From the sequence record PZ809289.1: a DNA stretch of 64,000 bases, one strand, 5' to 3'. The translations under genes were made by a program, and so were the position numbers. The notes beneath the pieces are model-generated. The model was not told the origin of the DNA. It saw only the letters and a program-made list of their open reading frames with translations, and did no database searches. How positions within the stretch are numbered: the stretch's first letter is position 1; each line of letters opens with the position of its first letter. Shown here piece by piece: positions 3,907 through 31,612 of the stretch. The stretch comes from a phage.

Positions 3907-4117
3907 ATTGACAATTGAAGGCTCTGATGAAGCTCTGAAGATGTTTGTTGACTGGTTCCATGAACAAGGCGAGCATGGCTTTATGGAATGTTGGGATGGC
4001 GGACAATGGAATGGTAAAGAAACCGTTTATCCTAGCACATATATCTCTGTTCGTGGTGGATATGATGGGATTCATTTAGTTGAATATGATATTGCATCTG
4101 ATGAGGAAGTGAAATGA
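3899..4117 (+). CDS. Hypothetical acidic protein (72 aa)
   Basis: ORF overlapping upstream stop; acidic composition typical of T4 early proteins. Confidence 0.5.
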   Translation: MSKLTIEGSDEALKMFVDWFHEQGEHGFMECWDGGQWNGKETVYPSTYISVRGGYDGIHLVEYDIASDEEVK

Positions 4118-17379: not shown

Positions 17380-17602
17380 AGAATATGTAGAGGCTGCCGA
17401 TAAGGCAGTCCGCGAACTTACTCTAGCTTATTATAAAGAGCACGGTAAATTTCCGGACAGTTATTCAGTATTGAAATCTGCTTTAACTCGCTCGTATAAT
17501 AATATACTATCTGATGTGTATAATTTAAAATATGAGCACATGGAAAAATATGGAACAGAACTTGACCGTTCTGAAGCATTCAAACAAATATTAGGAATTT
17601 AA
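17366..17602 (+). CDS. Hypothetical protein (78 aa)
   Basis: [15 protein letters not shown]...; RBS GAGAAGAAA; track ORF 17183 extends upstream in same frame. Confidence 0.45.
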
Positions 17603-17603
17603 A

Positions 17604-17867
17604 ATGTTTAAAGTTTATGGTTATGATTCAAATATTCACCGTTGTGTTTTCTGTGATAATGCCAAACGACTGCTTGATGTTAAGAAACAACCTTACGAAT
17701 TCATTAACGTGATGCCGGAAAAAGGTGTATTTGATGATGAGAAGATTGCTCAACTCCTGGCTGCGCTTGGTCGCGAATCTCAAATCGGTTTGACCATGCC
17801 GCAAGTATTTGCTCCGGACGGAACTTCTATTGGTGGCTTTGACCAACTGCGAGCGTATTTCAAATGA
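17604..17867 (+). CDS. nrdC: Thioredoxin/glutaredoxin NrdC
   Basis: MFKVYGYDSNIHRCVFCDNAKRLLDVKKQPYEFINVMPEKGVFDDEKIAQLL... near-identical to T4 NrdC (87 aa). Confidence 0.9.
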   Translation: MFKVYGYDSNIHRCVFCDNAKRLLDVKKQPYEFINVMPEKGVFDDEKIAQLLAALGRESQIGLTMPQVFAPDGTSIGGFDQLRAYFK

Positions 17868-18034
17868 TTGAATTAATGTTGGTTGTTTTGTATCTTATCA
17901 TCGGTATTGGTTATGCTAAGACCCTAGCTAAATTAGATGATTCAGGTGACTTTTGTTGGTGGTTGACGTCTATGATTTGTTGGCCTTTATTTCTGGTTGG
18001 TGCTTCATTCTGGAACTTCAAATGATTGAATTAA
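17859..18034 (+). repeat. Direct repeat of 18-bp junction TTCAAATGATTGAATTAA flanking a small ORF
   Basis: Copies at 17859-17876 and 18017-18034; each supplies a stop plus overlapping ATG so both downstream ORFs begin MIEL. Confidence 0.7.
17864..18025 (+). CDS. Hypothetical small membrane protein (53 aa)
   Basis: MIELMLVVLYLIIGIGYAKTL...; ATGA coupling with nrdC; not in ORF track (<60 aa). Confidence 0.4.
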   Translation: MIELMLVVLYLIIGIGYAKTLAKLDDSGDFCWWLTSMICWPLFLVGASFWNFK

Positions 18035-18330
18035 ACGAACAAACCATTTTTCTAGGTGATGGTACCGAAGATGACCTGGAATATAAACTATACGAATATA
18101 TGGTTTGGTTGGCTAAAGCAGAAGGTATAGACTTTGCTGTAGCCCATCCATATGGCGAGAACACTGTTGTAATCGGCGGCACCGCTTACGAAGTCCAATG
18201 GCAATACGTTGGCCTTGAATCTGAAGAATTTGAAGAAGATGAACACGGTGATTGGCATCCAGTCGGTCCTTGGTACTGGGAACACGGTGAACCTGATTTT
18301 GAAGTAAGTAGTTGGTGGTGTGACCGTTAA
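18022..18330 (+). CDS. Hypothetical acidic protein (102 aa)
   Basis: MIELNEQTIFLGDG...; ATGA coupling. Confidence 0.5.
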   Translation: MIELNEQTIFLGDGTEDDLEYKLYEYMVWLAKAEGIDFAVAHPYGENTVVIGGTAYEVQWQYVGLESEEFEEDEHGDWHPVGPWYWEHGEPDFEVSSWWCDR

Positions 18331-18385
18331 GCCATGGTATGTCGCTCGGTGGGATACGATAGAACCTACCGAGCCAGAGGAACCC

Positions 18386-18415
18386 GTTTACAACGATTCC
18401 GAAATAGAGTATAAT
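18386..18415 (+). promoter_or_regulatory. Early promoter-like element (GTTTAC, 18 bp, TATAAT)
   Basis: GTTTAC 18386-18391, TATAAT 18410-18415. Confidence 0.5.
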
Positions 18416-18461
18416 GAACCTTCAAACAATGATTTAATTGATATGGAATATGGGTTTTACT

Positions 18462-18647
18462 ATGAAAACTGAACTGATTTATACTGAAAAGTTAAATGGC
18501 GGTAAAGTCTGGAAACTTCTTATTAAAGGAAGTCCTACTGATCAGTTTATGGCCACTTGTGTAGGGTTATACACCCGTCCTACTAAAAAGATGATTCGTC
18601 AATTTAAACGGTTGCATCGCTCGTTTTATAGTACATTTGAAAAATAA
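18462..18647 (+). CDS. Hypothetical protein (61 aa; alternative starts TTG 18438 or ATG 18450)
   Basis: ORF downstream of promoter; start uncertain. Confidence 0.4.
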   Translation: MKTELIYTEKLNGGKVWKLLIKGSPTDQFMATCVGLYTRPTKKMIRQFKRLHRSFYSTFEK

Positions 18648-18682
18648 TAAATACCCTTATCTAATAATGGTAAGGGTTTATT

Positions 18683-31243: not shown

Positions 31244-31249
31244 ATTAAA

Positions 31250-31612
31250 ATGATTGAAATTACTCTGAAACAACCTGAAGACTTCTTGAAAGTTAAAGAG
31301 ACCCTAACTCGTATGGGTATCGCTAATAATAAAGAAAAGAAACTATATCAATCCTGCCACATTCTGCAAAAGCAAGGGCTGTATTATATCGTCCACTTTA
31401 AAGAGATGTTACGTATGGATGGCCGCCAAGTTGATATCGATGGTGAAGACTACCAACGTCGTGATTCAATTGCCCAGCTTCTTAAGGAGTGGGGACTGAT
31501 TGATATAGTAGACGACTCTGAGCTGTTCGAAATCACTAATAATTTCCGTGTCATTTCCTTTAAGCAGAAAAATGACTGGGAACTACTGTCTAAGTATACC
31601 ATTGGTAATTAA
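31250..31612 (+). CDS. regA: Translational repressor RegA
   Basis: MIEITLKQPEDFLKVKETLTRMGIANNKEKKLYQSCHILQKQGLYYIVHFKEMLRMDGRQV... near-identical to T4 RegA. Confidence 0.95.
   Translation: MIEITLKQPEDFLKVKETLTRMGIANNKEKKLYQSCHILQKQGLYYIVHFKEMLRMDGRQVDIDGEDYQRRDSIAQLLKEWGLIDIVDDSELFEITNNFRVISFKQKNDWELLSKYTIGN

Follow-up and report, generated by a model that had tools for sequence, protein, structure and literature searches.

This analysis concerns an exact 18-bp direct repeat, TTCAAATGATTGAATTAA, in a 64,000-nucleotide stretch of phage DNA (sequence record PZ809289.1; the whole stretch is referred to as "the window"). The repeat lies in a region 99.2% identical to the Escherichia phages WG01, QL01 and LHE83 (Dhakavirus; JS98-like T4-type phages). 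Its two copies are on the same strand, 158 bp apart from start to start, and each straddles a place where one gene ends and the next begins: copy 1 connects nrdC to a 53-codon open reading frame (ORF) for a putative membrane peptide, and copy 2 connects that ORF to the homologue of T4 gene 49.3. Comparison with related phages makes it probable that the repeat marks the loss of 185 bp, amounting to a 62-codon gene, by recombination between two look-alike stop/start junctions.

The repeat and its two junctions

The initial annotation of this DNA had noted that the 18-bp string recurs 158 bp downstream, that the copies bracket a membrane-peptide ORF, and that the two consecutive ORFs share the start Met-Ile-Glu-Leu (MIEL); all of this is borne out (coordinates are collected in Table 1). 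In copy 1 the nrdC stop codon, TGA, overlaps the ATG of the 53-codon ORF (ATGA at 17864-17867); in copy 2 the TGA of the 53-codon ORF overlaps the ATG of the gp49.3 homologue in the same way, and the same four codons, ATGATTGAATTA, open both downstream ORFs. Each junction is, as the sequence directly shows, an ATGA stop/start overlap, and translational coupling is predicted at both. DNA identity between the two neighborhoods ends after 18 nt. The window contains no further exact copy: the next-best match (31245-31262) has 3 mismatches and is the only other one at that level, while shuffled sequence, with up to 3 mismatches allowed, yields 0.38 matches on average. Nor is the repeat ubiquitous at gene junctions: when the 34 ATGA overlaps of the window are compared with each other (561 pairs), the exact match anchored on ATGA extends to 18 nt in this pair and to no more than 11 nt in the other 560. 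The 18-bp repeat is neither chance nor a generic junction feature. Assembly artefact is ruled out as its source by a 101-nt stretch across copy 2 that is identical in nine independently sequenced phages: WG01, QL01, FB, PSD9, PSD2002, E33, ABTNLS3, 04086 and LHE83.

(A side observation: the 11-nt core of the repeat, AAATGATTGAA, which specifies an M-I-E start, is also found at the gene starts at 4114 and 31250. Four gene starts of the window, at 4114, 17864, 18022 and 31250, thus combine a Lys/stop context with Met-Ile-Glu. The phage may have a preferred start context that recurs, which would supply scattered microhomology for junction recombination.)

The missing gene

The most informative comparison is an alignment of the window with WG01, LQ5, IME540, JS98 and IME08. 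The last four of these phages carry the small ORF (53 or 55 codons) with the same junction to nrdC, designated J1, and have an extra 62-codon ORF (MTEFD..., RB69 orf092c-like, phrog_9444) between the small ORF and 49.3. At the position of this extra ORF the window and WG01 have exactly 185 bp fewer, which appear as a 185-column gap; LQ5 is otherwise close, being 96.9% identical to the window over 1.3 kb. Within Dhakavirus and Gaprivervirus, every relative with the small ORF keeps J1. The 62-codon ORF has a junction of its own at each end: J2, TTCAAATGACYGAATTT, where the small ORF gives way to it (..CTGGAACTTCAA followed by ATGACYGAATTTGAT..), and J3, GGAATTATGATTGAATTA, where it gives way to 49.3 (..TATGGTGGAATT followed by ATGATTGAATTAAAC..). 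The window has the single product TTCAAATGATTGAATTA, in which ..CTGGAACTTCAA is followed directly by ATGATTGAATTAAAC... Where the window has copy 2, LQ5, IME540, JS98 and IME08 read TTCAA followed by ATGACYGAATTT.., then the body of the 62-aa (amino acid) ORF, and then ..GGAATT followed by ATGATTGAATTAAAC.

J2 and J3 share the motif ATGAYTGAATT, imperfectly, with uninterrupted identity of only 4 + 6 bp. Setting the parental J2 and J3 against the window sequence places the break within this imperfect repeat and makes copy 2 a J2/J3 hybrid. Two hallmarks of a microhomology deletion scar are found: the parental arrangement, with its extra segment, exists in close relatives (LQ5, IME540, IME08, JS98); and direct repeats flank the segment in the parent, one hybrid copy being left in the product.

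Layouts in related phages

Junction-specific searches of the INPHARED phage set brought out four layouts, which J1, J2 and J3 delimit, and a remnant type. Both genes are present (layout SB) in at least 22 phages, including JS98, IME08, LQ5, IME540, VR5, VR26, SP18 and KIT01. The peptide gene stands alone (layout S) in 17: the nine phages with the identical 101-nt stretch, which constitute the window's group, together with fDHCT2, Bp7, SHP1, Esco_phi_B-01, dhaeg, ESCO10, CJ20 and P479. The 62-aa gene stands alone (layout B, nrdC..TTCAA followed by ATGACCAAATTT) in four, dhabil, CLB_P2, NC-G and Ec2-ASingh. Neither gene is present in MX01, AnYang, CUA3 and vB_EcoM_005, nor in the T4-like phages; the comparison with relatives lacking the 53-aa ORF, which the initial annotation had proposed, thus yields a single junction copy, nrdC..TTCAA followed by ATGATTGAATTAAAC..49.3, in these four phages and T4. 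The junction into 49.3 reads CTGGAACTTCAAATG in layout S and GGTGGAATTATG in layout SB. Scans of IMG/VR with three junction-specific patterns recovered only isolates that had already been sequenced.

The remnant type (Sr) comprises VR7, TH15 and TH57. Between the membrane ORF and 49.3 it has a 26-nt remnant (e.g., ATGATTGACGAATTTATGGTGGAATT followed by ATGA) that consists of the head and the tail of the 62-aa gene (Gaprivervirus; VR7, 1365-1394 of our sequence L022; TH15, 1248-1277 of L009). As read from these sequences, the remnant is an independent and imprecise internal deletion, and direct proof of loss of the 62-aa gene. This remnant excepted, all break-points lie at J1, J2 or J3.

The S-type junction is found on three head alleles of 49.3 (MIELNEQ, MIGLNEQ and M[IN]ELSGQ), and S-type phages are, in their flanks, each nearest to an SB- or B-type phage (Bp7 to LQ5, 98%; dhaeg to JS98 and dhabil, 98% in nrdC); at least two to three separate junction events are therefore indicated. 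The window itself is 95%, 98% and 97% identical to LQ5 in nrdC, the small ORF and 49.3, respectively, versus 92% and 93% identical to MX01 in nrdC and 49.3. SB is the majority layout and is present in both genera, Dhakavirus and Gaprivervirus; the distant Klebsiella phage Marfa has the same order, nrdC - peptide - 62-aa ORF - 49.3. Deletion is favored because the closest relatives with another layout are SB in all three segments, because independent loss is documented, because SB predominates in both genera, and because SB is shared with Marfa. The comparison of sequences shows that a whole gene is missing, in register, that its end-points are those given above, within a short junction repeat, that J1, J2 and J3 are reused for all the occupancy states, and that independent loss has occurred.

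(In Mosigvirus the 62-aa gene is located elsewhere, after 49.3. One phage of this genus, ChristianSchoenbein, has a 21-nt direct repeat of its own, at 1151-1171 and 1466-1486 of our sequence L013, the copies being identical at 19 of 21 positions. The first, CTACGAGAATATTTTAAATGA, is the real nrdC tail, reading LREYFK-stop; the second, CTGCGAGAAAATTTTAAATGA, is a non-coding copy reading LRENFK-stop. The copies bracket the gp49.3 homologue (1168-1464), and the orf092c-like gene begins shortly after the second. Two readings suggest themselves: the footprint of a genuine insertion that duplicated the junction, or a trace of a former nrdC-orf092c adjacency like that of dhabil.)

Origin of the two halves of the repeat

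Where do the two halves of copy 2 come from? In T4, nrdC directly abuts 49.3 (the junction is TTTAAATGATAGAATTAA) and gp49.3 starts MIELNEQIIF; MIEL and the right half of the repeat therefore belong to gp49.3. T4 NrdC also ends in ..YFK-stop. Homologues of the peptide at the same locus have diverse beginnings (MIEG..., ATGATCGAAGGT, in EcS1; MVEG... in CHI14 and Gravdalen; MTTVF... in Marfa) and a common FWNFK tail. Since distant homologues have MIEG or MVEG heads and FWNFK tails, the M-I-E head and the TTCAA tail of the peptide gene are native as well. The repeat can thus be built from independently similar gene ends and one rearrangement, and target duplication is not needed. The suggestion that the small ORF borrowed its MIEL head from gp49.3 by duplication is weakened by the EcS1, CHI14 and Gravdalen starts, which leave only codon 4 (TTA) as clade-specific. 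A tandem duplication of a "MIEL" gene is rejected: the 53-aa ORF and gp49.3 have no similarity (BLASTP E = 13).

A proposed course of events

The setting is a pair of presumably coupled ATGA junctions in the hyperplastic region between nrdC and gene 49 of a JS98/WG01-like T4-type phage, and the proposal gives three reasons for their resemblance: 1) Phe-Lys-stop (TTCAAATGA) closes NrdC as well as the membrane peptide. 2) Met-Ile-Glu-Leu opens the peptide and gp49.3 alike. 3) A 62-codon gene that formerly separated the peptide gene from 49.3 would have been removed, as 185 bp, between imperfect copies of ATGAYTGAATT. Its loss would have placed the native tail of the membrane ORF (..FWNFK-stop) beside the native head of gp49.3 (MIEL), creating the exact 18-bp repeat. 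The ATGA overlap would have survived the deletion, leaving gp49.3 coupled to the peptide gene. The reaction may have been short-homology (illegitimate or low-homology) recombination, or replication slippage, carried out by the phage's own machinery, with selection presumably retaining only those events that preserve ATGA coupling. It is formally reversible by way of an excised circle. Two consequences would follow. Having lost the GGTGGA Shine-Dalgarno-like context of J3, gp49.3 would now rely on its coupling to the peptide gene and on CTGGAA, a weaker context. The 158-bp peptide gene, in turn, would be prone to the next deletion because of the perfect 18-bp repeat, and the product would be the MX01/T4 layout.

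Several considerations weigh against this reading. The J2 x J3 deletion and the reverse insertions (an S-type genome gaining the 62-aa gene, or the peptide gene entering between nrdC and 49.3) yield the same sequence; since they leave identical junctions, the polarity of the event rests on parsimony rather than proof. EcS1 and the Winklerviruses carry the peptide gene directly upstream of 49.3, so that the S layout could be the ancestral one. The homology at the crossover, 4 bp (ATGA), one mismatch and 6 bp (TGAATT), is short even for T4 deletions. Finally, the low synonymous diversity of both cassette genes, which is taken up next, shows movement and weakens reasoning from an ancestral state plus loss.

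A low-diversity island between J1 and J3

Synonymous diversity was estimated (as Nei-Gojobori pS) in the same 13 genomes for each gene (n = 6 for the 62-aa ORF). It is 0.36 for nrdC, 0.087 for the 53-aa ORF, 0.143 for the 62-aa ORF and 0.37 for 49.3: about fourfold lower in the J1-J3 segment than in its flanks, which argues that the cassette genes have moved between lineages. In a 20-nt sliding profile the limits of the island (alignment columns 260-610) are abrupt: diversity (pi) is 0.10-0.19 up to J1, 0.00-0.05 in the peptide gene, 0.03-0.06 in most of the 62-aa gene, and back to at least 0.12 right after J3. Across the genus boundary between Dhakavirus and Gaprivervirus, identity is 94-100% in the island versus 82-90% in the flanks. 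The extreme case is that of IME540 (Dhakavirus) and P479 (Gaprivervirus), with 0 differences in 158 positions of the peptide gene versus 88 in 565 of the flanks (Fisher p = 7e-11); the contrast between island and flanks is significant at p < 0.01 in 55 of 78 pairs. RNA structure or a known RNA is rejected as the cause of the island, the fold z-score being +1.04 and no Rfam family matching at E up to 1. On the simplest reading of these sequence data, lineages have exchanged the J1-J3 segment at a later time than the DNA on either side of it, and the junction repeats set the limits of exchange. To this extent the idea of the initial annotation holds up.

(What variation there is in the peptide gene is mostly non-synonymous and clustered in codons 5-8, positions 17876-17887 of the window, right after J1: MLVV, SLGV, LLGI, LLSV and MLGV. 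The loop of the peptide has a 2-codon indel, DDSGDF versus DDFGAGDF. Selection on the N-terminus may lie behind these differences, or else mosaicism at the recombination junction.)

Alternative explanations

The initial annotation interpreted the repeat as the footprint of an insertion by recombination at a short junction homology. In explicit form, the 53-aa gene would have entered an nrdC-49.3 junction of the MX01/T4 layout by a single, Campbell-type crossover with an excised circle, like the mini-circle of the promoter-early stem-loop (PeSL) system, duplicating the 18-mer. Part of this is supported: junction homology has been used for recombination, and single-copy relatives exist, with a junction identical to the 18-mer in MX01 (TATTTCAA followed by ATGATTGAATTAAAC) and one in T4 that agrees with it at 16 of 18 positions; diversity is low in the small ORF, an island with a sharp limit at J1 that has recently crossed lineage and genus boundaries; and a reversible circle model has been published for T4-type phages (PMC2839356). 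What does not stand is the derivation of the repeat itself. A one-step deletion from an LQ5-like layout accounts for the sequence exactly, the window's flanks are nearer to SB-type LQ5 than to MX01, and the components of the repeat are native to their gene families, no duplication being required. Moreover Marfa, EcS1 and CHI14 have the ORF without any flanking repeat, a finding that the initial annotation had itself named as telling against insertion. The exact repeat is better explained by loss of the neighboring gene, and its origin by insertion of the peptide gene appears quite unlikely.

The opposite polarity for the 62-aa gene is also rather improbable, if somewhat less so. Adjacency of the small ORF and 49.3 would then be ancestral, the 62-aa gene would have been inserted once or repeatedly in the SB relatives, and the 18-bp identity would be a by-product of shared Phe-Lys tails and Met-Ile-Glu heads. 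The order nrdC, peptide, 49.3 of EcS1 fits this, its peptide-49.3 junction (TTTTAAAAATGTTGATTGAATTA) resembling the window's, as does the placement of the peptide gene beside 49.3 in CHI14 and Gravdalen. The 62-aa gene is, in addition, mobile, to judge from its location after 49.3 in Mosigvirus; its pS is below that of the flanks; and AAATG precedes M-I-E starts at four gene starts of the window. Set against all this, the VR7 and TH15 remnants prove that a change from SB to an S-like state by loss has happened within the clade, SB order is found in Marfa, SB is the majority layout spread over both genera, and the 62-aa gene would have had to insert several times independently, each time precisely at one and the same 4-bp overlap. 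Loss of the 62-codon gene by recombination between J2 and J3 remains the preferred account.

That the 18-mer has no recombination history at all, being either a coincidence or an optimal termination-reinitiation context selected independently at both junctions, is very improbable indeed. AAATGATTGAA does stand at four gene starts in the 64-kb window, and both junctions are ATGA overlaps that would need coupling; yet identity at 18 of 18 positions is an extreme outlier among the junction pairs, relatives show copy 2 being assembled by an indel, and the SB-type 49.3 junction has a different and better Shine-Dalgarno-like context, so that the 18-mer is not required for expression of 49.3.

Two kinds of element were considered and rejected. 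A transposon or homing-endonuclease footprint is at odds with 158 bp that contain no enzyme gene and no inverted repeats, their only ORF being that of the 53-aa peptide. Homing endonuclease genes are nearby only in VR7 and Bp7, and co-conversion tracts would not end sharply at J1 and J3. A PeSL element at the junction is ruled out by the 4-bp ATGA overlaps, which leave no intergenic DNA, promoter or terminator; the strong promoter-like sites are outside the block.

The surrounding genes

The order of genes in the region is nrdC.1, nrdC, small ORF, 49.3, a 49.1 homologue, and gene 49 (endonuclease VII). Table 1 lists the features that bear on the repeat.

Table 1. Features at and around the 18-bp repeat (positions in the window)
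Feature	Position	Strand	Evidence or remarks
Strong early-promoter-like site, TTGAAA-18-TATAAT, upstream of nrdC	17471..17500	+	Predicted; consensus scan, 11/12 matches
nrdC (phage glutaredoxin/thioredoxin, 87 aa, ends ..AYFK-stop)	17604..17867	+	Pfam PF00462 Glutaredoxin, E = 5e-7; annotated NrdC in WG01, JS98, T4
Repeat copy 1 (junction J1)	17859..17876	+	nrdC tail TTCAA (Phe-Lys), ATGA overlap, membrane-ORF head (ATGATTGAATTA + A)
53-codon membrane-peptide gene, phrog_6756, conserved C-terminus FWNFK	17864..18025	+	PHROG match, E = 8e-30
Repeat copy 2 (hybrid junction)	18017..18034	+	J2 left half (membrane-ORF tail TTCAA + ATGA) joined to J3 right half (gp49.3 head TTGAATTAA)
Putative crossover point, ATGA	18022..18025	+	To the left of the T/C difference, the parental junctions agree only here
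gp49.3 homologue, 102 aa, phrog_4203	18022..18330	+	PHROG match, E = 1.5e-47; head MIELNEQ native to the family
Second strong promoter-like site, TTTACA-17-TATAAT, downstream of 49.3, within the gp49.1 homologue	18387..18415	+	Predicted; consensus scan

The two promoter-like sites bracket the nrdC - small ORF - 49.3 block; at the repeats themselves the consensus scan found no terminator, and only a weak 9/12 promoter match at 17839-17868. The product of the 53-codon ORF has no Pfam match. It has two hydrophobic segments, with 11-residue Kyte-Doolittle means of up to 3.0 and 2.0, which make "membrane peptide" a reasonable label for it on sequence grounds; in Kagamiyamavirus, Winklervirus and Marfavirus, homologues found by tblastn occupy the same locus, and the pN/pS of the peptide gene is 0.26.

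Downstream, a 50-codon ORF with a GTG start (18320-18472, + strand) shares its first 11 nt with the end of 49.3. JS98 gp49.1 matches it at 82% identity (E = 5e-29), but the WG01 RefSeq record has a gap in its annotation at this place. The interval between 49.3 and endonuclease VII (18330-18680) is highly mosaic among relatives, with a Pin-like gene, orf77, orf76 and 49.1 variably present; the window and WG01 have the shortest stretch from 49.3 to gene 49 of the phages compared, JS98 and IME08 among them. A MobE-like homing endonuclease gene follows 49.3 in VR7, and another homing endonuclease gene follows the block in Bp7.

The analysis also calls for a correction of existing annotation. The membrane-peptide ORF is intact yet unannotated in the records of JS98 (RefSeq; 1465-1626 of our sequence L002), IME08 (about 1465-1632 of L003) and CJ20 (1084-1251 of L016), and the 62-aa genes of JS98 (orf81) and IME08 (orf77) are annotated with upstream-extended starts that overlap the 3' part of the peptide gene.

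Implications and comparison with known systems

The locus illustrates cleanly, and with good sampling, how T4-type phages can acquire and shed tiny accessory genes while leaving operons unbroken: because recombination takes place at look-alike stop/start junctions, whole genes come and go in register. A further prediction is that the 18-bp repeat should destabilize the 53-aa gene in WG01-like phages, a group of which some members are under consideration for therapy.

One can go further and see in the ATGA overlap, taken together with the three or four codons that open the gene (TTYAAATGAYTGAATT), a coding-sequence "attachment site" of JS98/VR7-like phages, at which promoter-less cassettes excise as circles and re-integrate, in register, at similar junctions. 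This analogy is tentative, and we think it rather unlikely. If it were true, tiny genes would hop between genera and yet stay coupled, in a manner that is PeSL-independent and integron-like, with no integrase; the signatures would be the sharply bounded low-diversity island between J1 and J3, the fact that each of the four occupancy states occurs, and the duplication of a 21-nt nrdC tail on the two sides of 49.3 in Mosigvirus.

Insertion and deletion of small ORFs by way of short repeats is already established for the hyperplastic regions of T4-type phages; what is new here is a well-resolved case at a coding stop/start junction instead of a regulatory cassette. A search of the available library for papers on T4 short-repeat deletion and join-copy found none that was relevant.

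Three known systems invite comparison. With integron-like cassettes and target-site duplications the locus has in common a single small gene between direct repeats, and "empty," one-copy sites in relatives. It differs from them in that its 158 bp lack inverted repeats and encode neither an integrase nor a transposase nor a homing endonuclease, and in that the halves of the repeat are coding sequence of the neighboring genes, conserved in distant relatives without duplication.

Albertini and colleagues reportedly described, in 1982, spontaneous deletions that occur between short direct repeats. The resemblance is close: the segment in the parental layout is flanked by short direct repeats (ATGAYTGAATT), one hybrid copy is left behind, and no dedicated recombinase is involved. 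What sets the present case apart is that the repeats are not random: they are the stop/start overlaps and first codons of three consecutive genes. Whole genes consequently go in register, with coupling preserved, and the same three sites serve all four layouts. Deletions of this type have been invoked in the same hyperplastic region of T4-type genomes, for a g49.2/.3 exchange in phage PST that was put down to "small randomly homologous sequences" and not to PeSL elements (Comeau et al. 2014, PMC4122927).

PeSL shuffling in T4-type phages, for which circles carrying PeSL-flanked ORFans have been proposed and partly demonstrated (Arbiol et al. 2010, PMC2839356), likewise concerns small ORFan cassettes in hyperplastic regions that are bounded by repeats and present or absent in close relatives; excision and integration are reversible in principle, and exchange between lineages is implied. 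The junctions examined here, in contrast, have no intergenic space, promoter or terminator, the genes overlapping by ATGA; their homology is 11-18 bp of coding sequence versus a regulatory cassette of about 100 bp; and the cassettes are promoter-less, depending on predicted coupling to the upstream gene. Should these junctions prove to be reused integration sites, the idea of PeSL cassette shuffling would extend to promoter-less, translationally coupled cassettes.

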